Part shown: positions 1-11,190 of the stretch, piece by piece
Layout of the letters: the number at the start of each line of letters is the position of its first letter
Position numbering within the stretch: position 1 is the stretch's first letter
NCBI GenBank assembly: GCA_026397375.1
Contig: JAPLUZ010000022.1
Span: forward strand, 24,234-88,233
Direction of reading: 5' to 3'
From: Candidatus Aenigmatarchaeota archaeon
GTDB lineage: Archaea; Aenigmatarchaeota; Aenigmatarchaeia; GW2011-AR5
DNA: 64,000 bases
Program-made: the position numbers and the translations under genes
Notes under the pieces: generated by a model
Told to the model about the DNA's origin: nothing
What the model saw: only the letters and a program-made list of their open reading frames with translations
Databases searched by the model: none

Positions 1-157
1 AATTGCAGGAAAAATGTGTTGTCACAGAAAAGTGAATTGATATAGTTTGCAGTGAAGTAATGCTTATAAGAGCCTGATTCCATTTCTTTAGGATGGCAGA
101 GGAGCAGGACTGAACTTGCTACGCATTCAGCCTTGCTTCATTCTCCTTTTTTCACAG

Positions 158-181
158 ATTTTTGATATTATTTTTGATATT
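158..181 (+). repeat. Perfect 12-bp tandem duplication atttttgatatt x2 in the promoter region of the mevalonate-entry operon
   Basis: Read directly: 158-169 and 170-181 are identical; TATA-like tttataag at 213-220 lies ~28 bp upstream of the ATG at 248. Confidence 0.8.
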
Positions 182-247
182 TTTTAATCGTTGCTACCAA
201 ATTGCGACACCTTTATAAGAGTTTCTGTAATTAGGGTTTTGTTCATT

Positions 248-1297
248 ATGACACAAATAGGTATAACGGGCTACGGGTCCTACGTGCCGCGCTTCAGAAT
301 AAAAGTAGAGGAAATAGCAAAAGTCTGGGGTGCTGATGCAGAGGCAATAAAAGACGGCCTGCTTGTTGACGAGAAGAGTGTGCCTGGCAGTGATGAGGAC
401 ACTATTACTATTTCTGTAGAAGCGGGAAAAAATGCGCTGAAAAGAGCACAGATAGACAGAAAAAAAATAGGCGCCCTGTTCATAGGCAGCGAAAGTCACC
501 CGTATGCTGTAAAGCCTTCCGGCACTGTTGTTGCTGAAGCTCTTGGTTTGAGCACAAATTTGCTGGTGGCGGACATTGAATTTGCATGCAAGGCAGGAAC
601 AGCTGCAATGCAGTGCTGCTATGGGCTTGTAAAAGCAGGCGAGATAGAATACGGCCTTGCAATCGGGGCTGACACTTCACAGGGCAGGCCTGGAGATGCG
701 TTGGAATATACAGCAGGCGCCGGCGGGGCTGCATTTATAATTGGAAAAAATCCAATAGTTGAGATAGAAGGCATGACTTCTTTTACGACAGATACTCCAG
801 ATTTCTGGCGCAGGGAAGGCGAAGATTTTCCACGTCACGGATCACGCTTTACAGGCGAACCTGCTTATTTCAAGCATGTGATAAGCGCGAGTAAGATGAT
901 GATGGAAAAATTGGGATTAACTGCGAAAGATTTTGATTATGTTGTTTTACACACGCCTAACGGCAAGTTTCCAATGCGCGCTTCGAAAATTCTGGGCTTT
1001 GAAAAGGAGAAAATAATGCCGTCGATGATTGTAACAAAAATAGGCAATACGTATTCAGGCGCAAGCCCACTGGCGCTCTGCAATGTTCTGGATACAGTAG
1101 CAAAGCCTGGCGACCGCATACTTATGACGTCTTACGGGTCGGGCGCCGGCAGTGATTCGTTTTCCCTTGTTGTCACAGACAGGCTGTTGGCTGTAAGGGA
1201 TCTTGTTACAAAGACGAATGAGTACATCGAAAAGAAACAGTACATAAGCTATGGCCAGTATGCAAAACTGAGGAAAAAATTGAAGGGGATGGAATAA
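248..1297 (+). CDS. Hydroxymethylglutaryl-CoA synthase (archaeal type)
   Basis: ORF 191..1297, likely real start at ATG 248 ([15 protein letters not shown]...); thiolase-fold condensing enzyme of typical archaeal HMGCS length; co-operonic with thiolase and a DUF35 protein. Confidence 0.8.
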
Positions 1298-1575
1298 TGA
1301 GTGATGCAAGATACCATACAATTGTTTTATCAGAACCGACGGAAAAGCGAGTTGCACTTATACTTGGTTCTACGGTTCAGAATTCTAACAGGATCTTGCG
1401 GGACTGTCCTGATGCTGATGAATTCGGTATTTGCCCGGCTTGGGCGAGCCCCATGGAGATGTATAAAAATATGGGTTCTACCGTCGTGTACATAGACATG
1501 GCATTTCCGAATTATGAAAGTGTTGTCAGAAGATTTGAGGAGCTTGCAAGAAAAACAGAAGGTGCCAAATCATGA
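1297..1575 (+). CDS. Hypothetical 92-aa protein, translationally coupled between HMGCS and thiolase
   Basis: Start overlaps the HMGCS stop and its stop overlaps the thiolase start (ATGA); no recognisable motif. Confidence 0.45.
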   Translation: MSDARYHTIVLSEPTEKRVALILGSTVQNSNRILRDCPDADEFGICPAWASPMEMYKNMGSTVVYIDMAFPNYESVVRRFEELARKTEGAKS

Positions 1576-2738
1576 GAAACATAGCTGTTGTTGGAACGCA
1601 CCAGACAAAGTTCGGAGAGCTTTGGGACAAGTCGCTGCGAGATCTGGCTGTGGAAGCAGGCCTCGGAGCAATAAAGAATTCCGGCTTGGAGAAAAGCCAG
1701 ATACAGGCATTGTATGTTGGAAATATGTCAGCTGGCAGATTTGTCGGGCAGGAGCACCTTGGTGCTTTGATAGCTGATAATTTAGGATTGAAAGGTGTGC
1801 CTGCCACACGCTGCGAAGCTGCGTGTGCCTCAGGAAGCGTGGCTTTTCGTGATGCTTATTTTGCTGTTGCGTCTGGTGACATAGACGCTGCGCTTGTCGT
1901 TGGAGTGGAAAAAATGACTGACATCCACGGTAGTGGTGTACTCACTACGTTAGCGGCTGCTGGCGACCAGGAATGGGAAGCCTCAATGGGGCTAACATTT
2001 GCCGGACTCTATGCGCTGATGGCAAGAAAACATATGCACGACTTCCATACAACAAGAGAACAGATGGCCCAAGTAGCTGTTACTAATCATAAAAACGGAT
2101 TGAAGAACAAATTAGCGCAATTCCAGATGGCAATAACGCTGGAAGATGTGCTTACATCAACGATGATTGCTGACCCATTAAGGCTGCTGGATTGTTCACC
2201 TATAACTGACGGTGGCGCAGCTGTTGTTATTACCAGCGAAGATCTTGCCAAAAAGCTGGGTGGCCAGCCTATCTATGTATTGGGAACTGGCAAAGGGACA
2301 GATACGATAGCGCTGCACGACAGAAAGTCTTACACAGAACTGCTTTCTACGAAGCTGGCTGCTAGGCGGGCTTATGAGCAGGCAGGACTTCGGCCACAGG
2401 ATATAGATGTGACAGAGGTCCACGACTGCTTCACGATAAACGAGATAATAGCTATGGAGGACCTGGGATTTGTGGAGAAAGGCAAAGGCGGCAAATTCGT
2501 TGAGGATGGAGAGATAGATATTAATGGCTCTGTGCCTACCAATACGTGCGGCGGCCTGAAGGTCTGCGGTCATCCTGTCGGCGCAACTGGTGTAAGACAA
2601 ATTGCAGAAATTGTACAGCTGTTAAAAGGTGAATGTTTCAATCCGATAAACGGGGCTGAAATCGGACTGAACCTGAATATAGGCGGGTCTGGTGCGACTG
2701 CCGTTGTAAATATATTCGGGAAGGAGCCGAAGGTGTAA
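1572..2738 (+). CDS. Acetyl-CoA C-acetyltransferase (acetoacetyl-CoA thiolase)
   Basis: 388 aa; thiolase motifs (CEAACASGS active-site Cys region; C-terminal GHPVGATG... and NIGGSGAT). Confidence 0.85.
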   Translation: MRNIAVVGTHQTKFGELWDKSLRDLAVEAGLGAIKNSGLEKSQIQALYVGNMSAGRFVGQEHLGALIADNLGLKGVPATRCEAACASGSVAFRDAYFAVASGDIDAALVVGVEKMTDIHGSGVLTTLAAAGDQEWEASMGLTFAGLYALMARKHMHDFHTTREQMAQVAVTNHKNGLKNKLAQFQMAITLEDVLTSTMIADPLRLLDCSPITDGGAAVVITSEDLAKKLGGQPIYVLGTGKGTDTIALHDRKSYTELLSTKLAARRAYEQAGLRPQDIDVTEVHDCFTINEIIAMEDLGFVEKGKGGKFVEDGEIDINGSVPTNTCGGLKVCGHPVGATGVRQIAEIVQLLKGECFNPINGAEIGLNLNIGGSGATAVVNIFGKEPKV

Positions 2739-2740
2739 TT

Positions 2741-2992
2741 ATGCAAAGGGGGTTTTTGGTTGAGGGGGATGTTGTAGAAGTACAAGTAAAGGGCTTGGAA
2801 GATGGGCATACGGATCTTGTGAGGATTTATCATGTTATAGATGACGAGGTTTGCGCGTATCCTGAGAATATAAGTTTCCCGTGGATGAAGGATATTTGCA
2901 CCTACACGCTTGATGATGTTAAAAATGTCATTATTGGTCTTACTCCGCTGTTTCCCATGCAGTATCAGCCAATAACCAAGTATGTTAGGTAA
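2741..2992 (+). CDS. Hypothetical 83-aa protein in the mevalonate operon
   Basis: Starts 3 nt after the thiolase stop, same strand, unknown fold. Confidence 0.4.
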   Translation: MQRGFLVEGDVVEVQVKGLEDGHTDLVRIYHVIDDEVCAYPENISFPWMKDICTYTLDDVKNVIIGLTPLFPMQYQPITKYVR

Positions 2993-2997
2993 TAATT

Positions 2998-3225
2998 ATG
3001 ACATATAAACTTAGCTTTGACCCTGCGCAGCTGCCGCCCAGGAGTGAATGGAAAAGAACAACAGTATTGTTAAACGCTCCGTCCCGTGAACATATAGGGA
3101 TTTTGTCAGTTATGAAGGGCTGCGGTAAAAACGATGTTATACTTGATGCATTAACAAGATACATTAAAGAAGCTGGTTTTGATCCGTTCAAAAAACCAAA
3201 AAACATCATAGTAGAATATGAGTGA
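2998..3225 (+). CDS. Hypothetical 75-aa protein in the mevalonate operon
   Basis: Its stop overlaps the start of the DUF35 gene (ATGA). Confidence 0.4.
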   Translation: MTYKLSFDPAQLPPRSEWKRTTVLLNAPSREHIGILSVMKGCGKNDVILDALTRYIKEAGFDPFKKPKNIIVEYE

Positions 3226-3629
3226 TAATCATGCCGCATAGAGGATCTGTACCGATGTCGTGGAGACTGGCAAAGCACAGGTACGCTATGGTAGGCGTAA
3301 AATGTAGGAAGTGTGGAGCTGCGCATTTCCCGCCGCGCATGGTGTGCATGGATTGCGGCAGCCAGGACATGGACAAGTTCCAGTTTTCCGGCAACGGAGA
3401 GATATTATCCTACACGGTAATTCATACTGCACCAGAAGGGTTTGAAAAACAAACACCATATGCCATTGCCTTGGTCAAGCTGGAGGAAGGACCTGTGGTC
3501 AGTGGACATGTTATCAACAAAGAAAGCATAGAAATAGGAAAGCAGGTAAGTATGGTTTTCAGGAAGCTCTATGAGGATGGCAAAGCCGGAGTTATCAACT
3601 ACGGATTCAAGTTTGAGGTAGTTGAGTAG
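3222..3629 (+). CDS. DUF35-family Zn-ribbon/OB-fold protein (scaffold subunit of the archaeal thiolase/HMGCS complex)
   Basis: 135 aa; CRKCG...CMDCG zinc ribbon followed by an OB-like C-terminus; the three genes sit together in one operon here. Confidence 0.7.
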   Translation: MIIMPHRGSVPMSWRLAKHRYAMVGVKCRKCGAAHFPPRMVCMDCGSQDMDKFQFSGNGEILSYTVIHTAPEGFEKQTPYAIALVKLEEGPVVSGHVINKESIEIGKQVSMVFRKLYEDGKAGVINYGFKFEVVE

Positions 3630-3872
3630 TAGGTTAAGAAAGATTATTAGAAACTTCTCAAAATGTTGGCCATCTCAATTGTCATTAATAGTTGTTAACA
3701 GTTAAACTACATTTGCCAGAATTCTTAACAAAACAAGGAATTATTTGCAAAAACCAACACTGACCCTGTTGCTTCCTGTCAAAAGCAATAAATTAACCTC
3801 GATTTCTTATGCAAGATAGGATACCTCCTCTTCCTATAACAATGTTATATATAGTTAGTAGTATATGCGTGA

Positions 3873-3897
3873 GTGCACTGGAAATTATGGGGTGCTC
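3873..3897 (+). promoter_or_regulatory. ORB-like origin recognition box with downstream G-string (gtgCACTGGAAAttatGGGGtg)
   Basis: Resembles the archaeal ORB dyad core (TTCCAGTGGAAAC) followed by a GGGG string. Confidence 0.5.
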
Positions 3898-3930
3898 TAC
3901 TTTTTCTAACATAGACTTTGGAAAACATCT

Positions 3931-3943
3931 ATTTCCAGTGGAG
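3931..3943 (+). promoter_or_regulatory. Mini-ORB-like element aTTTCCAGTGGAG, inverted relative to the ORB at 3873-3897
   Basis: 11/13 match to the TTCCAGTGGAAAC mini-ORB core; forms an inverted pair with 3876-3884. Confidence 0.5.
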
Positions 3944-4040
3944 ATATTTTTATATACTCTCCATGAGAAATAGTGGTGTTAACGTGGATGGCTTTTTTGT
4001 TTACCAAAGGCTGGCTGTCCTTAACTAGTGGGGTGTTGGT

Positions 4041-5276
4041 GTGAAGTTAGAGACTACAATACAAAATAACATATTTTCGCAGTATCTTCAGAAAGAAAAC
4101 ATATTCAAGGATAAGAAATTTTTGACTTCTTCTTTTGTTCCAGACAAGATAACACACAGGGACGGTGAAATTAGGCAAATAGGCTCAATCCTGGCGCCTG
4201 TCCTGAAGGGCTACAGTGCCAATAACATATTCATCTACGGCACCTGCGGTACTGGCAAGACCATATGCGCCAAGTTCATTATCAACCAATTAAAGGAAAT
4301 TTCTGACAAAAATGGCCATAAAATAAAGGTCATCTACGTAAACTGCAAGATGAAGAGGGTAGCTGACACAGAATACAGGCTTTTTGCCCAGCTGCTCAAG
4401 GAATTAGGAGAGTATGTTCCAGATACAGGATTGCCAACAGACGTGCTTTACAGAAAGTTCTTTGAAAAAGTAGAAACAGCAAAGTGCACCCACATCCTTA
4501 TACTGGATGAAATAGACACCCTTGTAAAGAAGGTTGGCGACGAGTTTCTCTATAATTTCACAAGAATAAACCAGGAGCTAAAGCAGAGCCACCTCACAAT
4601 TGTAGGTATAACAAATGACCTGTCAATAAGAGACAACCTGGACCTCAGGGTAAAATCCTCGTTGTCTGAAGAGGAGATATTGTTCAAGCCGTACAATGCA
4701 AACCAGCTGAAGGACATATTAGAAGAAAGGGCGAACAGCGGCTTTATCTCAGGCGTTATAGAAGAACCGGTAATAGCAAAGTGCGCAGCCATAGCTGCAC
4801 AAGAACATGGGGACGCAAGAAGGGCGCTGGACCTGCTGCGTGTTGCCGGCGAGATAGCAGAGCGCTCTGGCGAAGACACGGTTACTGAAAAGCATGTTGA
4901 CATAGCAGAGCAAAAGATAGACCTGGACCGCGTAACAGAAACAGTAAAAGTGCAGCCAACCCAGTCACAGGCTGTGCTGTATTCAATAATTCTATTGAAA
5001 AACAAGATTAATGACCAGAAAAAATGGGTGGACAAAAGGCTTATGACAGGCGACGTTTTTGACCAATACTGCCAGATATGCGCTTCCAACGGCCTGAAGT
5101 CATTGACACAAAGAAGGGTTTCAGACCTGATAAGCGAATTGGACATGCTGGGCATAATAAATGCAAAGGTCATCAGCAACGGCCGCCATGGAAGGACAAG
5201 GGAGATAATACCAGCCATGAATGAAACAGTCCTTGGCAAAGTAACTACTTTCCTTTCTGAGAAGTTTTCGGTGTGA
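4041..5276 (+). CDS. cdc6: Orc1/Cdc6 replication initiator
   Basis: 411 aa; AAA+ Walker A GTCGTGKT, Walker B ILILDEID, C-terminal winged-helix region; GTG start; next to the candidate origin. Confidence 0.85.
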   Translation: MKLETTIQNNIFSQYLQKENIFKDKKFLTSSFVPDKITHRDGEIRQIGSILAPVLKGYSANNIFIYGTCGTGKTICAKFIINQLKEISDKNGHKIKVIYVNCKMKRVADTEYRLFAQLLKELGEYVPDTGLPTDVLYRKFFEKVETAKCTHILILDEIDTLVKKVGDEFLYNFTRINQELKQSHLTIVGITNDLSIRDNLDLRVKSSLSEEEILFKPYNANQLKDILEERANSGFISGVIEEPVIAKCAAIAAQEHGDARRALDLLRVAGEIAERSGEDTVTEKHVDIAEQKIDLDRVTETVKVQPTQSQAVLYSIILLKNKINDQKKWVDKRLMTGDVFDQYCQICASNGLKSLTQRRVSDLISELDMLGIINAKVISNGRHGRTREIIPAMNETVLGKVTTFLSEKFSV

Positions 5277-6364
5277 ATATGAAAGAAGAGGTAGTGAGGA
5301 AGTTTCTCCAGAAAGGGAGACTTCTTTCACCGGATATTTTAGAGAAGTTGGTCAGCGGACAGATAGACGAAACTATGGTACTCTATGATGATCTGGTTAT
5401 AACAAACGCCAGACAGAAAGACAAGGAAGAATTTACAATTTTAAAGAACATAACAAAAAAGAAGGAAGAAGCCAGCGCCGAGGATTTTGCCAAATTCTAC
5501 AGGTCAAAATACGAAAAGACCGTCAGTATTCTTGCAACACGCCTGCAGAAAGACTTCATCTCATTAAACAAAGTGGATAATTTTCGAAATGAAATATATG
5601 TAACAGGCATTGTCAAAGACGTGCAGAAAAAAGATGAAAAATTTATAATAGAGCTTGAAGATCTTACAGGCTCCGGAAAAATAGTTTTTGACGGCGAGCA
5701 GGACGTGGATTTGGACGATGTGGTGGCTGTCAGGTGCGTATCAGCCGGAAACATACTTTTTGGCAAGCAGATTATATATCCGGATGTTCCATTAAGACAG
5801 CCAAAGACCGGTTCTGGTAGTGCATGTTTTATCTCAGGTCTTAACCTACACGAAGCAGCAAAACAGGATGCTGAGAAATTCTTTAGATGGTTTTCAGAAC
5901 AGCACGCTGACCTGCTTTTTGTAGCTGGCGACATAGGCGACAAGGACGTTTTTGAGAAATATGTAAACATATACTGCTCTCAAAAAACTATCTTTGTTAT
6001 CCCTGGAAATAAAGATAAGGACGAGGAGTATCCGCAGACGCCTATAATTTTTGACAACAAAAACATCGTTTCAATAAGCAATCCAGGAATGGTGGAAGTG
6101 AATGGCCTGGTAATACTGCTTATTCATAACTTTAACACGGACATGCTGAAAAAGCGTTATCTCGGCCGATCAAAATGTATTATGGACGAGGACGAATTGG
6201 TATTAGATATAACGCCCGACATCGTTTGTCACAGCGCTGCGGACTCGCAGGTTACAAATTATAAGTCAATAACAATGGTTACTTCTGGGTCCCTGCTTGC
6301 CGACTTCAGGCCAGTTGTAATAGATTTTGGCACCAGAGAAGCACAGCAGAATAAAATAGAATAG
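5273..6364 (+). CDS. PolD small-subunit (DP1)-like protein with OB-fold and degenerate calcineurin-like phosphoesterase domain
   Basis: 363 aa; OB-like EDLTGSGKIVFDG; PDE motifs altered: SGLNLHE (motif I Asp/His lost), GDIGD kept, GNKD instead of GNHD, CHSA instead of GHVH; start overlaps the cdc6 stop (probable ATG at 5279). Confidence 0.55.
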   Translation: MNMKEEVVRKFLQKGRLLSPDILEKLVSGQIDETMVLYDDLVITNARQKDKEEFTILKNITKKKEEASAEDFAKFYRSKYEKTVSILATRLQKDFISLNKVDNFRNEIYVTGIVKDVQKKDEKFIIELEDLTGSGKIVFDGEQDVDLDDVVAVRCVSAGNILFGKQIIYPDVPLRQPKTGSGSACFISGLNLHEAAKQDAEKFFRWFSEQHADLLFVAGDIGDKDVFEKYVNIYCSQKTIFVIPGNKDKDEEYPQTPIIFDNKNIVSISNPGMVEVNGLVILLIHNFNTDMLKKRYLGRSKCIMDEDELVLDITPDIVCHSAADSQVTNYKSITMVTSGSLLADFRPVVIDFGTREAQQNKIE

Positions 6365-6385: not shown

Positions 6386-9088
6386 GTGATAAAAATGAAG
6401 TTTCAAATACTGGACATTGATTATTTTCTAAATAACAACAAGCCCGTTCTCAGAATATTCGGCAAACAGGAAGACGGGACATCGGTCTGCGGCATGTACG
6501 ACAAGCTGGAGCCATATTTTTATATAAGGCTTGGCGTATCATTTGACAAGGCACTGGATGAAATGGAGAAAATGAGGGAAATAAAGAATGTGGAGCAGGC
6601 AGAAAGGTTCGTGCCTCTCGGGTACCAAACAAGCAAGACAAAACTATTGAAGGTTACATTATGGAACCCGCAGGAAGTGCCAACCGTAAAATCAAAGCTA
6701 ATTGAATTGGGCATAGCAAAAGATATTTTCGAAGCGGACATACTTTTCAAGTATAGGTTTATGATTGATCACGGGTTCTATGGCATGCAATGGGTTGAAG
6801 CAGACGGAGAGTCGACAAAGACTGTAAAATCAAAGGTCAAAACCTATAAAATAAATTCCATAAAACCAATTGAAAAACAGGAGAACGCGCCAATAAGTTA
6901 CATGGCATTTGATATAGAATGCGTGCCGTCGGACCCAAAAAGACCGCTTGACGCCAGAAAAGATCCAATAGTGATGATATCCTTGTCTTTTGTGCCTGAA
7001 TACAGAAACAAAAAAGACATTGTACTTGTTGCAAAGCCTTTCACCGGCGAAGGGACAAAGGGATTTGCCAATGAGAAAGAGATGCTCGAAGAGTTTCTGA
7101 ATATTATAGAAACGTATGACCCGGATGTGCTCACAGGCTACAACATAAATTCCTTTGACTTTCCATACATTGTAGAAAGGCTGAAGCAGAACAAGCTCAA
7201 CGCATGCATAGGCAGGACAGACAAGGAGGCCTTCTCAAGAGAGTTTGGCATAACCAATGAATTTATTGTTACAGGCAGGGTCGTTGTCGACCCGTACCAG
7301 ATATTGAAAAGGGATCCGTGGGTAAAATTTCACAGGTACGACCTCAATACAGTGGCAAAGCAGCTGCTGAATGAAGAAAAACATGCAGTTGAATACGGAG
7401 AAATGGCAGGACTATGGAATGGAGGAAAAGAAGGCCTTTCCAGGCTTATAGAATACTGCAGAAGGGATGCTGATCTATCACTTAAACTGGTCTTGAACAG
7501 GGGAATGCTGGACAAATTCTTTGAACTGTCGAAGATATCAGGCCTGCTTTTACAGGACGTATTCGGCGGCCAGACAAGGCGCATAGAAGTAATGCTTTTG
7601 CATGAATTCAGGAAAAGGGATTTCGTAATGTCCGCCGCGCCGTCACGCAATGACATGAGCAGAAGAACAGGCGAAAGAAAGGACAACGAACTGAAAGGCG
7701 CAACTGTCCTGGAGCCGAAAAAGGGCCTGCACGCAGAAGGCTGTGTTCTGGTTTTGGATTTCAAAAGCCTGTACCCGTCTATAATGAGAACATTTAATGT
7801 ATCCCCTGACTCGGTATTGCTCGACAAAGAACTTATAGAAAAAGTGAAATCACACCAGTCACCTACAGGAACACATTTCGTTGATGGGGAAATTTACCAG
7901 GGAATATTTCCTTTTGTGCTTACAAAATTGCTCGATGCAAGAGGTGCAATAAAGAAGCAGATGAAGACAAGCGCAGGAGATGAGAAAAGGATATTGAATG
8001 CAAAACAGCTCGCGCTGAAAGATATATGCAATTCCTTTTACGGATACACAGGTTACATACGCGCCCGCCTGTACATGATAGACGTTGCCAATAGCATAAC
8101 AGGCTACGGCAGGGATAACATAGAAAAAACAAGAAAGCTGATTGAAGAAAACTTTGACGTGGAAGTTGTTTACGGAGACACGGATAGCATATTTTTGAAA
8201 ACAAAAACAACAAATCTTGAAGAAGCACAGGAACTTGGCACAAAAATATCCAAGTTCATTACAGAGAGGCTGCCGGGCTATCTGGAATTAGAATTCGAGA
8301 AAATATACAGGACATTCCTCATACTTTCAAAGAAGCGCTACGCAGGATGGAAATTTGAAAAGGTCGGAGACAAATGGAATGACGAAATGGAAATGCGCGG
8401 CATAGAAACCGTGCGCAGGGACTGGTGCATGCTTGTATCCGATGTGATGAACGAGGTCTTGAGAATTGTTCTGAAAGAAGGGGATCTGCAGGCGGCAATA
8501 ACATGCGTCAAGGATATTTTGGACAAGCTGCGCAAGGGAAAAATACCAATGGAAAAATTGACAATAATCAAAGGCATTACACAGAGCCTGGATGCATACA
8601 AAGGAACGCTGCCTCATATAGAACTTGCAAAAAAACTGGCTATAAGAAATCCACACGACCCGCCAAAGGTCGGGGACCGCCTGGAGTTTGTCATAATCAA
8701 GGGAAACCAGATGCTGTCAAAGAGGTCAGAAGACCCCAGATACGCAGAGCAGAATAACATACAGATAGATTCAGACTACTACATAAACAGCCAGCTATTC
8801 CCGCCAATAGAGAGAATATTTGCAGCCGTTGGCATTGATAAGAGCGAGATTTTCGGCAGCGGTCATCAGGCAAGCCTGGGTGACCTGCTTTCCGGAAAGA
8901 AGAGAACAATGAAACACGACATCGAAATAGAATACAAAAAACTGGAAGGAATAGAAGAGTTCATCTGCAAGAAATGCAACAAATCTTACAGGAGAATACC
9001 GCTTTCAGGCGTGTGTGAATGCGGCGGAGAATTGCTAATGAGCTACCACGGATCTGTAGGAGACAAAATAATTCTGGACAAAAAATAA
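6386..9088 (+). CDS. polB: Family B DNA polymerase (PolB), exonuclease and polymerase motifs intact
   Basis: 900 aa; Exo I FDIE, Exo II YNINSFDFPY, Exo III YCRRDA; Pol A DFKSLYPSI, Pol B KDICNSFYGYTGY, Pol C YGDTDS; C-terminal Cys4 zinc fingers; probable start ATG 6395. Confidence 0.9.
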   Translation: MIKMKFQILDIDYFLNNNKPVLRIFGKQEDGTSVCGMYDKLEPYFYIRLGVSFDKALDEMEKMREIKNVEQAERFVPLGYQTSKTKLLKVTLWNPQEVPTVKSKLIELGIAKDIFEADILFKYRFMIDHGFYGMQWVEADGESTKTVKSKVKTYKINSIKPIEKQENAPISYMAFDIECVPSDPKRPLDARKDPIVMISLSFVPEYRNKKDIVLVAKPFTGEGTKGFANEKEMLEEFLNIIETYDPDVLTGYNINSFDFPYIVERLKQNKLNACIGRTDKEAFSREFGITNEFIVTGRVVVDPYQILKRDPWVKFHRYDLNTVAKQLLNEEKHAVEYGEMAGLWNGGKEGLSRLIEYCRRDADLSLKLVLNRGMLDKFFELSKISGLLLQDVFGGQTRRIEVMLLHEFRKRDFVMSAAPSRNDMSRRTGERKDNELKGATVLEPKKGLHAEGCVLVLDFKSLYPSIMRTFNVSPDSVLLDKELIEKVKSHQSPTGTHFVDGEIYQGIFPFVLTKLLDARGAIKKQMKTSAGDEKRILNAKQLALKDICNSFYGYTGYIRARLYMIDVANSITGYGRDNIEKTRKLIEENFDVEVVYGDTDSIFLKTKTTNLEEAQELGTKISKFITERLPGYLELEFEKIYRTFLILSKKRYAGWKFEKVGDKWNDEMEMRGIETVRRDWCMLVSDVMNEVLRIVLKEGDLQAAITCVKDILDKLRKGKIPMEKLTIIKGITQSLDAYKGTLPHIELAKKLAIRNPHDPPKVGDRLEFVIIKGNQMLSKRSEDPRYAEQNNIQIDSDYYINSQLFPPIERIFAAVGIDKSEIFGSGHQASLGDLLSGKKRTMKHDIEIEYKKLEGIEEFICKKCNKSYRRIPLSGVCECGGELLMSYHGSVGDKIILDKK

Positions 9089-9894: not shown

Positions 9895-10002
9895 TCAAAA
9901 TAAGAAAGCCGCTGTAAAATGTGTTTTACGCATTTTATTGCAACTTTCTGATGAGTATTTGAGAAATAAGGATTTAAGCCTTATTTTTGCATTTTACGGC
10001 GA

Positions 10003-11190
10003 TTACAGGAAAGCGTAGAACAATATTGCCGGCAGTATTAGCACACCCATTAGACAGCCACGCTTCACACCAATGAGATTAACAAATATGCCAAAAGCCG
10101 TGCATATGACAAGAATAATTAAACCAAGGGCGCCGGTAAAAACAAATGTCATTACACATATCAGCACTATAACAATTTTGCTTATCAGCGCGTAGTCTAT
10201 TCTCTGGGCAAAATTAAGAAAAGATTTTGTCAATTTTAACGTGAGCAGGGCTGCCACACCGATACAAATTACAAAGACAGACAAAATAAGCAAAAGCTCA
10301 TTGAAGCCTATTTCAGTTATCTGGCTGATTGCAACTGCAAGGCCACTTCTCGACTTACTAATCAGCCAAAGGCAGGCAATGGAGAAAATTGCATTTACCA
10401 TTGTTAGAGAACCAATTGTTATCAAAAAGGATTTTTCATTTTTAGTTATTGATGCCAAGGATGCAAGTTCACTGGACCCAACACCAGGCAGAAAGCCAGC
10501 TACAATGCCAGCCGCTGTGCCTGAAAATACAGACCGGACAACCGTCTTCTTTGATACAAAAAAAGTCCCCCTTTTCTGCTTAGGTATGGACGACCTCTGC
10601 TTCAGCTGCAGAAACATAATGCTAACACCAAAGAAACCGGAAAGAACAGGAAACAGGATTAGCGTCTCATTAACAGGTATTTTGCCAATCAAAAGTCCGA
10701 TCAGGCCAGCCGCAAGAAATACAAACAAGGCAATAAATTTTTTGCTGCCGTCTTCTGTCAAAATCATCAGCAAAGCAATAAAGATCAGAAAAAGATAAAT
10801 GAAGCCTTTTATGGCGGCAAAAACTACAGGAACAATTAATGCAAGAAATGGAAGCAGCAAAAGAAACAGCAAAGCCGATAAAACGCTGCCGGTAACGGCA
10901 AGTTTTACAGCCTCATAACCATGGCCAGACATCAGCATTTTATGCGCAGGCAAGACGGCCATTTCATTTCCCTCGTCTGGCGCACCAAGAAGAAAAGAAG
11001 GAATAAAATCAACAATAGTATTTGTAATGCCCATTGCCACTATGAAAACAATCAGATTTACCACAGGAATGTTAACAGCAAGCAGAAATGGCACAGCGAG
11101 AATTATCATGTTCGGATGAATGCCCGGCAGCAGGCCCATAATTATTCCTGCAAGTATGCCTAGAACCAGGAACAAAAGAATTTCGATCAT
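10003..11190 (-). CDS. TctA-family (DUF112) multi-pass membrane transporter subunit (putative)
   Basis: 395 aa, about 10-12 TM segments with repeated G-LPG-G motifs (GLLPGIHPN, GFLPGVGSSE). Confidence 0.35.
   Translation of the reverse strand: MIEILLFLVLGILAGIIMGLLPGIHPNMIILAVPFLLAVNIPVVNLIVFIVAMGITNTIVDFIPSFLLGAPDEGNEMAVLPAHKMLMSGHGYEAVKLAVTGSVLSALLFLLLLPFLALIVPVVFAAIKGFIYLFLIFIALLMILTEDGSKKFIALFVFLAAGLIGLLIGKIPVNETLILFPVLSGFFGVSIMFLQLKQRSSIPKQKRGTFFVSKKTVVRSVFSGTAAGIVAGFLPGVGSSELASLASITKNEKSFLITIGSLTMVNAIFSIACLWLISKSRSGLAVAISQITEIGFNELLLILSVFVICIGVAALLTLKLTKSFLNFAQRIDYALISKIVIVLICVMTFVFTGALGLIILVICTAFGIFVNLIGVKRGCLMGVLILPAILFYAFL

Follow-up and report, generated by a model that had tools for sequence, protein, structure and literature searches.

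Three tightly packed small genes in the mevalonate-entry operon of an Aenigmatarchaeota archaeon: a lineage-specific insertion that includes a ribbon-helix-helix protein and a putative pseudo-receiver

The archaeal complex of thiolase, HMG-CoA synthase (HMGCS) and a DUF35 protein reportedly channels acetoacetyl-CoA into the mevalonate pathway, as Vögeli and colleagues are said to have described in PNAS in 2018. This operon and its complex are already known, and so are the ribbon-helix-helix (RHH) proteins and the receivers and pseudo-receivers that will be met below. Related DUF35-thiolase complexes are described in two other reports (PMC12960953; bioRxiv 10.1101/2024.07.05.601840). Here we analyze the operon of a Candidatus Aenigmatarchaeota archaeon, which lies at the start of a 64,000-nucleotide (nt) stretch of DNA, hereafter called the window (contig JAPLUZ010000022.1, positions 24,234 to 88,233). 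It resembles the archaeal thiolase/HMGCS/DUF35 operon in having the same three full-length genes in the same order and in sharing its flanking synteny with relatives. Unlike the others, whose junctions are empty, with median gaps of 19 nt between HMGCS and thiolase (153 related loci) and 22 nt between thiolase and DUF35 (132 related loci), it has three extra small genes, namely orf92, orf83 and orf75. We found no paper on small genes inside this operon, or on the operon in Aenigmarchaeota. What is new is the intercalation of small genes into this operon, together with a family of truncated-receiver mini-proteins and an orphan family termed G2.

The explanation that we favour, and to which we give somewhat better than even confidence, is that these are real, lineage-specific small genes packed in the HMGCS/thiolase/DUF35 operon, and that they encode dispensable, fast-evolving accessory or regulatory factors, with orf75 as an RHH protein and orf92 as a pseudo-receiver.

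The six + strand open reading frames (ORFs) at positions 248-3629 are joined at distances of -4 to +5 nt and look like a single transcription unit (Table 1). Archaeal-type HMGCS, PRK06064-type thiolase and DUF35 are neighbours on the same strand, as in a mevalonate-entry operon. HMGCS matches NCBIfam TIGR00748 (550 bits) and NF003274 (554 bits), and is 79% and 77% identical to the proteins of the related loci L001 and L081, respectively, while DUF35 matches Pfam OB_ChsH2_C (expectation value (E) = 5.6e-18) and zf-ChsH2 (E = 7.2e-11). The original prediction had read the gene order as HMGCS-orf92-thiolase-orf83-orf75-DUF35, and both the ORF coordinates and the Pfam and NCBIfam matches of the three enzymes confirm it. 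The proteins of orf92, orf83 and orf75 have zero matches in Pfam or NCBIfam.

Table 1. Genes and upstream elements of the operon, and the G0 genes of two related loci. Coordinates are those of the window unless a locus is named; lengths are in amino acids (aa), and pI is the isoelectric point.
Feature	Position	Strand	Remarks
HMG-CoA synthase (HMGCS), archaeal type, 349 aa	248..1297	+	ATG start; mechanical ORF begins at TTG 191
orf92 (NT120_00770), position G1, acidic, pI 5.3	1297..1575	+	HMGCS/thiolase junction
Acetoacetyl-CoA thiolase, 388 aa	1572..2738	+	NCBIfam NF004720, 551 bits; Pfam Thiolase_N and Thiolase_C_1
orf83 (NT120_00780), position G2, acidic, pI 4.6	2741..2992	+	thiolase/DUF35 junction
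orf75 (NT120_00785), basic, pI 9.2	2998..3225	+	between orf83 and DUF35
DUF35 scaffold protein, zinc ribbon and OB fold, 132 aa	3231..3629	+	from ATG 3231
Perfect tandem 12-nt repeat, ATTTTTGATATT x2	158..181	+	30 nt 5' of the TATA-like TTTATAAG
TATA-box-like element, TTTATAAG	212..219	+	about 30 nt 5' of the HMGCS ATG; read from the sequence
G0	L001:4129-4536, L081:590-988		overlaps the HMGCS start; N-terminal region novel; receiver ends after helix 3

orf92, orf83 and orf75 are genuine protein-coding genes. Codon usage was scored as the log-likelihood per codon under a model built from 41 long ORFs of the window. On this scale, orf92 scores 0.067, the lowest of the three, orf83 0.164 and orf75 0.124; 80-codon pieces of true genes have a mean of 0.183 and a 5th percentile of 0.037, and 78 shadow ORFs are all at or below 0.026. 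That each frame is free of stops from end to end is improbable by chance (p = 0.0027, 0.0023 and 0.0038 for orf92, orf83 and orf75, respectively, in 20,000 shuffles), and six inserts found in relatives are likewise open (p <= 0.005 each).

Outside their own genome the three genes are hard to trace. A word-indexed search against 5.8 billion proteins returned self-hits only, i.e. hypothetical proteins of a Candidatus Aenigmarchaeota metagenome-assembled genome (MAG), and an exact-sequence look-up has no strain variants of them on record. tblastn finds no homologue or paralogue of the small ORFs at E < 0.1, either in the 160 loci of the comparison set described below or in the window itself. We considered whether they originated from pieces of HMGCS, thiolase or DUF35 and rejected this, since one of 27 comparisons reached p = 0.02, which is the chance expectation. 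On a crude gene map, the 64-kb window holds no other case of small ORFs between larger same-strand genes. The intercalation is thus a trait of this operon and not of the genome, and a genome-wide habit of intercalated small ORFs was rejected on the same ground.

For the comparison set, the thiolase served as query, and 80 loci each were taken from species-representative genomes and from metagenomes (cited by L numbers where needed). The order HMGCS-thiolase-DUF35 is general across related loci, and a compact operon is the norm, as the median HMGCS-thiolase gap indicates. The two median gaps also bear out the earlier view that the arrangement in the window is unusual. If an ORF of at least 68 aa within a junction is counted as a gene-sized insert, such inserts occur in few loci: the window, L001, L081, L002, L008 and the bacterial L122 and L039. 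L001, whose thiolase is 83% identical to that of the window, has the inserts orf140 and orf93, and L081 (thiolase 77% identical) has orf181 and orf76. A few further loci have gaps of 120-220 nt with a short ORF or none, and in L131 DUF35 is about 3 kb away.

In a neighbour-joining tree of HMGCS and thiolase, the window, L001 and L081 form one clade within a group that includes the compact loci L003, L005 and L082. The window, L001 and L003 share a collinear run of downstream genes (cdc6/orc1, the PolD small subunit and a 900-aa protein), while L081 and L008 are collinear with the window as far as their contigs extend. Because the downstream genes are collinear, the loci of the window, L001, L003, L081 and L008 are orthologous. 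The original prediction had proposed a look at conserved synteny, which turned out to be partial: the closest relatives, L001 and L081, keep coupled ORFs at both junctions, whereas distant relatives are without them and orf75 has no counterpart in any related operon.

Within the wider clade, L002 (orf121, 5626-5991) and L008 (orf109, 1111-1440) also have coupled ORFs in the HMGCS/thiolase junction, which resemble neither any other insert nor any known family. Set against the compact sisters L003, L005 and L082, they point either to several gains at one junction or to a divergence that has erased all resemblance. The HMGCS/thiolase junction accepts insertions in distant lineages too. In two Ignavibacteria-like bacteria (L122:3080-3552 and L039:5496-5968), an antitoxin gene and a ParE gene lie as a pair exactly at this junction (ParE_toxin, E = 7e-7). 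These bacterial insertions resemble the inserts of the window in that small genes stand at the HMGCS/thiolase junction and leave the operon undisrupted; they differ in that no toxin family matches the ORFs of the window, which an archaeal clade has in common by descent. Archaeal-type HMGCS-thiolase-DUF35 operons were also observed in MAGs labelled Ignavibacteria, Melioribacter, KSB1, Calditrichia, Aerophobetes, Bacteroidota and Stahlbacteria (L017, L029, L034, L039, L052, L060, L071 and L080), with thiolases 54-56% identical to that of the window.

One small clade has long kept the small genes, which evolve there several-fold faster than their neighbours. At 4-fold degenerate sites, the flanking genes are 29-45% identical among the window, L001 and L081, i.e. 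they are saturated. The flanking enzymes of the window share 72-84% identity with those of L001 and 59-77% with those of L081; the small proteins are 21-29% identical to their positional counterparts. At such divergence unconstrained DNA would have lost any frame, yet all six inserts of the relatives are open. Since coupled ORFs persist at both junctions of the three loci despite saturated synonymous sites, we take it that selection keeps them. In alignments of both G1 (the HMGCS/thiolase inserts) and G2 (the thiolase/DUF35 inserts), the second codon position is better conserved than the third.

Similarity between inserts was assessed by Smith-Waterman scores against 2,000 composition-preserving shuffles, each G2 pair being one pre-specified comparison. 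All three G2 pairs are similar: orf83 and L001 orf93 (p = 0.0115), orf83 and L081 orf76 (p = 0.0055), and orf93 and orf76 (p = 0.0005). With the same junction and a detectable similarity, although with weak support from hidden Markov models (HMMs), orf83 and its counterparts orf93 and orf76 are very probably orthologues. Comparisons between these inserts reach or pass the limit of what BLASTP and two-sequence HMMs can detect. No match to orf83 was found in Pfam, NCBIfam, PHROGs, PADLOC, PDB, phages or viral contigs, and it belongs to a small orphan family, G2, of probably all-beta proteins.

The G1 counterparts of orf92 are 140 aa (L001) and 181 aa (L081) in length, so that orf92 is 50-90 residues shorter. 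It lies at the same junction, is coupled on both sides, and has a marginal similarity to L081 orf181 (p = 0.0175); the p value for orf92 and L001 orf140 is 0.53, that for orf140 and orf181 is 0.03, and the two-sequence HMM is negative. Orthology of orf92 with orf140 and orf181 is thus probable but not certain. A profile of the three G1 sequences matches CheY-type receivers in PDB at the alpha2-beta3 (phospho-acceptor) segment, with E = 0.007 over 30 residues, and most of the 22 listed hits are receivers. Comparison of orf92 with the G0/G1 alignment gives a weak hhalign P of 0.016.

The origin of this family is more apparent from G0, a gene that precedes HMGCS in L001 and L081. The L081 protein matches Pfam Response_reg with 48 bits (E = 1.5e-12), and coverage in the two G0 proteins, which are 45% identical to each other, is 1-64/66 of 111 profile positions. 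The beta1 DD pair and the LLD(I/V)xMPG phospho-acceptor segment are present in both, and by its sequence G0 is unmistakably a truncated receiver. The paralogy of L001 orf140 to G0 is significant (p < 0.0005 and p = 0.002), so that the G1 family derives from a receiver cut after helix 3. orf92, orf140 and orf181 themselves have no Response_reg (PF00072) match in Pfam; their G0 paralogues alone match.

The family shares with Response_reg proteins (PF00072, CheY-like receivers and pseudo-receivers) the DD pair and phospho-acceptor segment of G0 and the paralogy of G1 to G0. It differs from them in that all G0/G1 members end after helix 3 (about 64 of 111 positions) and are without the beta4/beta5 Thr/Ser and Lys, that the G1 members, including orf92 with its marginal membership, have lost the DD pair, and that the N terminus carries a novel extension, with neither a kinase nor an output domain present. 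orf92 is not a complete (beta-alpha)5 domain, ending about 20 residues past the aspartate-containing strand, and this truncation removes the Thr/Ser and Lys positions. Its acidic pocket is incomplete in the alignments, where GS replaces DD and nothing but the D of YIDM is kept. orf92 cannot be a working phospho-receiver and does not qualify as a member of PF00072; we infer that it is a shortened pseudo-receiver of the G0/G1 family, which retains a sole aspartate aligned with the phospho-acceptor. As a side observation, the G0/G1 alignment matched one receiver-like stretch among viral contigs.

orf75 can be placed through its homologues. phmmer against 1.84 billion representative proteins found three relatives (P0004-P0006; E = 2e-5 to 8e-4, 35-39% identity), with which orf75 aligns end to end, i.e. 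it is full length. The family alignment consists of a strand (RTTV), two helices and a conserved tail, GFDPxKKPKxIxVxY; orf75 itself has an N-terminal strand RTTVLL, a helix, a G-x-N turn and a second helix. Two of the four family members match Pfam RHH_1 (best E = 2.5e-5) and one matches VapB_antitoxin (E = 0.003), while P0006 has a weak precomputed RHH_1 match. Positions 19-59 of the family profile align with VapB26, CopG, YiiF, MazE and NikR (E = 0.12-1.3). Because its homologues match RHH_1 and VapB_antitoxin, the profile aligns with the RHH core and the protein is basic, we assign orf75 to the RHH proteins (CopG/VapB-like); the membership comes through homologues aligned over the strand-helix-helix core.

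In common with RHH regulators and antitoxins (CopG/Arc/MetJ; RHH_1, PF01402; VapB), orf75 is small and basic and has the strand-helix-turn-helix order, and its relatives match RHH_1 or VapB_antitoxin. Unlike them, it falls below every Pfam threshold, carries the family tail, has no toxin partner, and is unusually sited inside a metabolic operon. The earlier statement that none of the three small proteins has a recognisable motif therefore no longer holds, as orf75 is in the RHH family and the family of orf92 comes from a truncated receiver domain. No counterpart of orf75 exists in L001, L081 or any of the 160 operon loci, and it was acquired only in the genome of the window.

The relatives of orf75 elsewhere stand in unrelated contexts, alone or beside paralogues, and not beside toxins. 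In L162 (2462-2912) they are tandem paralogues of 68 and 66 aa, in a context unrelated to isoprenoid metabolism. In L163 they occur, with a second RHH_1-positive gene, among small ORFs of 76-81 aa (5001-5246, 6721-6966, 7248-7478 and 9996-10241), and L164 has the same kind of arrangement; these contexts, too, are unrelated to isoprenoid metabolism.

The junctions of the operon are tight, although not quite as first described. Three ATGA overlaps had been claimed, and that of orf92 and thiolase (4 nt) stands. The HMGCS/orf92 junction is TAATG instead, a 1-nt overlap of stop and start, and the orf75/DUF35 junction is a GTGA overlap if GTG 3222 is used, or else a 5-nt gap before ATG 3231. The latter start is favoured because homologous DUF35 proteins begin with MPHRGSV or MPHRSTV. 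The gap is 2 nt between thiolase and orf83 and 5 nt between orf83 and orf75. Shine-Dalgarno-like motifs precede thiolase (AGGTG, placed 9-13 nt 5' of the ATG), orf83 (AGGTG), orf75 (AGGT) and DUF35 (GTGAT), and lend weak support, since such motifs are found at 21% of random positions in this A+T-rich DNA. There is no Shine-Dalgarno-like match 5' of the HMGCS start at ATG 248, and inside the six-gene block there is no + strand terminator-like site and no Rfam match.

Window positions 1-247 contain stops in all six frames. The position of the TATA-like TTTATAAG suggests that the operon mRNA may be leaderless or have a short leader. More speculatively, the tandem ATTTTTGATATT repeat might serve as an operator. 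Its 12-mer has no other exact copy in the window and none in L001 or L081; one copy in L162, near the RHH homologues but 235 nt from the gene, was judged a chance match. An imperfect 24-nt inverted repeat (window 2738-2761 / 3194-3217; 71% complementary, A/T-rich) flanks orf83 and orf75 and is probably due to chance.

On the explanation that we favour, the small proteins would be made together with the enzymes, via termination-reinitiation or from their own Shine-Dalgarno-like sites, and would act as accessory or regulatory factors and not as core subunits. orf75 would most likely be a dimeric repressor or autoregulator at the operon promoter, for which the tandem ATTTTTGATATT repeat is a candidate site, while orf92 and orf83 would most likely be adaptors that bind the enzymes or each other and tune assembly or activity. 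A core structural role is unlikely because of the low identity of the small proteins next to that of the enzymes (21-29% vs. 72-84%), their shifting lengths at one junction (92, 140 and 181 aa) and their absence outside the clade.

Several observations weigh against this explanation. Adjacency is the sole link between the small proteins and the enzymes, and the arrangement is known from three genomes only, all of them MAGs or metagenome contigs. The operator idea draws on a single repeat. orf92 is only marginally supported as a homologue of its positional counterparts, its comparison with L001 orf140 being not significant; BLASTP finds nothing significant between orf92 or orf83 and their positional counterparts, which counts against the case for orf92, and neither ORF ranked first among 712 open segments of the window with two-sequence HMMs built from L001 and L081. 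G0 is not found in the 64-kb window, and the small proteins are dispensable, given this absence and the lack of inserts in L003, L005 and L082. orf75 alone has no Pfam match and no PDB match at E <= 10. Finally, AlphaFold2 single-sequence models are uninformative both for the orf75 monomer (predicted local distance difference test, pLDDT, 43) and for orf83, which is modelled as all-beta with low confidence (pLDDT 45).

The main rival, which we consider rather unlikely, is that DNA was inserted at the gene junctions and that the small ORFs are passengers or bridges, whose frames are open only since a premature stop would uncouple translation or cause polarity on the essential genes downstream; the peptides themselves would have no enzyme-related function. 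Such ORFs would be expected to look much as these do, with very fast divergence next to well conserved enzymes, big length shifts at one junction, start/stop overlaps that are kept in the window, L001 and L008, unrelated ORFs in the same junction of L002 and L008, and a dispensability that is evident from the compact operons of sister genomes. However, residual protein similarity is detectable despite saturated synonymous sites (p = 0.0005-0.0115 within G2; p < 0.0005 for G1 against G0), and thiolase, orf83, orf75 and DUF35 have Shine-Dalgarno-like motifs of their own, so that coupling through open frames is not obviously needed. In addition, orf75 is full length and its DNA-binding family can be recognised.

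A more ambitious version of our explanation, in which orf92 with G0/G1 and the orf83 family would be dedicated regulators or adaptors of the channeling complex and orf75 would set the transcription of the operon, seems to us improbable as it stands. Slightly less probable again is the main idea of the original prediction, that the small proteins are stoichiometric extra subunits of the thiolase/HMGCS/DUF35 channeling complex. Their genes are indeed tightly packed with the three subunit genes, and G1 and G2 hold their position in three genomes, but the enzymes and DUF35 have their full length and are strongly conserved, leaving no missing part to replace. Furthermore, the small proteins diverge far faster than the surfaces that they would bind, are absent from about 150 other operons including those of sister genomes, and in the case of orf75 have a fold of DNA-binding type.

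It is very improbable that the small genes are the remnant of a mobile module, e.g. a toxin-antitoxin pair of orf83 (toxin) and orf75 (RHH antitoxin) that landed in the operon. This idea gains from the VapB_antitoxin match within the orf75 family, from the profile matches to VapB26 and MazE, from the true antitoxin and ParE pair in the bacterial L122 and L039, and from the inverted repeat around orf83 and orf75, although the latter, as noted, is poorly complementary and A/T-rich. Against it, no RHH partner accompanies the counterparts of orf83 in L001 and L081, orf83 has no toxin-family match in Pfam, NCBIfam, PADLOC or PHROGs, the orf75 homologues elsewhere are not beside toxins, and codon usage is host-like. 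None of the three proteins has a match in PADLOC, PHROGs, or the phage, plasmid or IMG/VR viral-contig collections, and as far as is visible in the sequence the small ORFs are not mobile- or defence-derived.

That the ORFs are spurious frames or pieces of one decayed larger gene has next to no probability: all three are orphans in the word-indexed search and orf92 has the weakest coding score, but this view fails the open-frame and codon-usage tests and is at odds with the persistence of the ORFs across saturated divergence, the end-to-end match of orf75 to its homologues and the lack of similarity to flanking genes or any larger protein. With it goes most of the earlier suggestion of fragments of a decayed gene, which does not apply to the full-length orf75 and is unsupported for orf83, but keeps part of its force for orf92, shorter than its 140-181-aa counterparts.

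The HMGCS/thiolase/DUF35 operon, with its median gap of 19 nt in 153 loci, is among the most rigidly organised archaeal metabolic clusters, and a clade that keeps coupled genes in it across saturating divergence is a natural experiment on the birth, retention and decay of small proteins in an essential operon. Binding to the complex, if it occurs, would make these small proteins the first protein regulators known for archaeal mevalonate entry; if orf92 with G0/G1 and the orf83 family are dedicated regulators or adaptors and orf75 sets transcription, the set would represent the first lineage-specific protein-level control of mevalonate carbon entry, and this in a DPANN archaeon whose lipid supply may be host-dependent. 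G0/G1 would be a signalling domain that was trimmed and put to new use as a free-standing mini-protein, in a lineage where two-component signalling is sparse. Even if the ORFs are passengers, the locus is an example of selection that keeps reading frames open while constraining their sequence only weakly. The pattern, which is confined to three uncultured genomes, is real and informative about evolution.

The surroundings of the operon have some further features. In L001, a 457-aa ORF (775-2148) that is HMG-CoA reductase-like, judging from its residues alone, lies about 2.4 kb upstream of HMGCS, and between the two is a conserved membrane protein gene on the opposite strand (2738-3544), which is also found in L002 and L003. 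Downstream of the operon in the window, an A+T-rich stretch of 411 nt (3630-4040) separates DUF35 from cdc6/orc1 (4041..5276), which is followed by the genes for the PolD small subunit and the 900-aa protein. On the crude gene map, this stretch contains just one marginal 54-aa ORF (3809..3973), and it is likely a replication-origin region.

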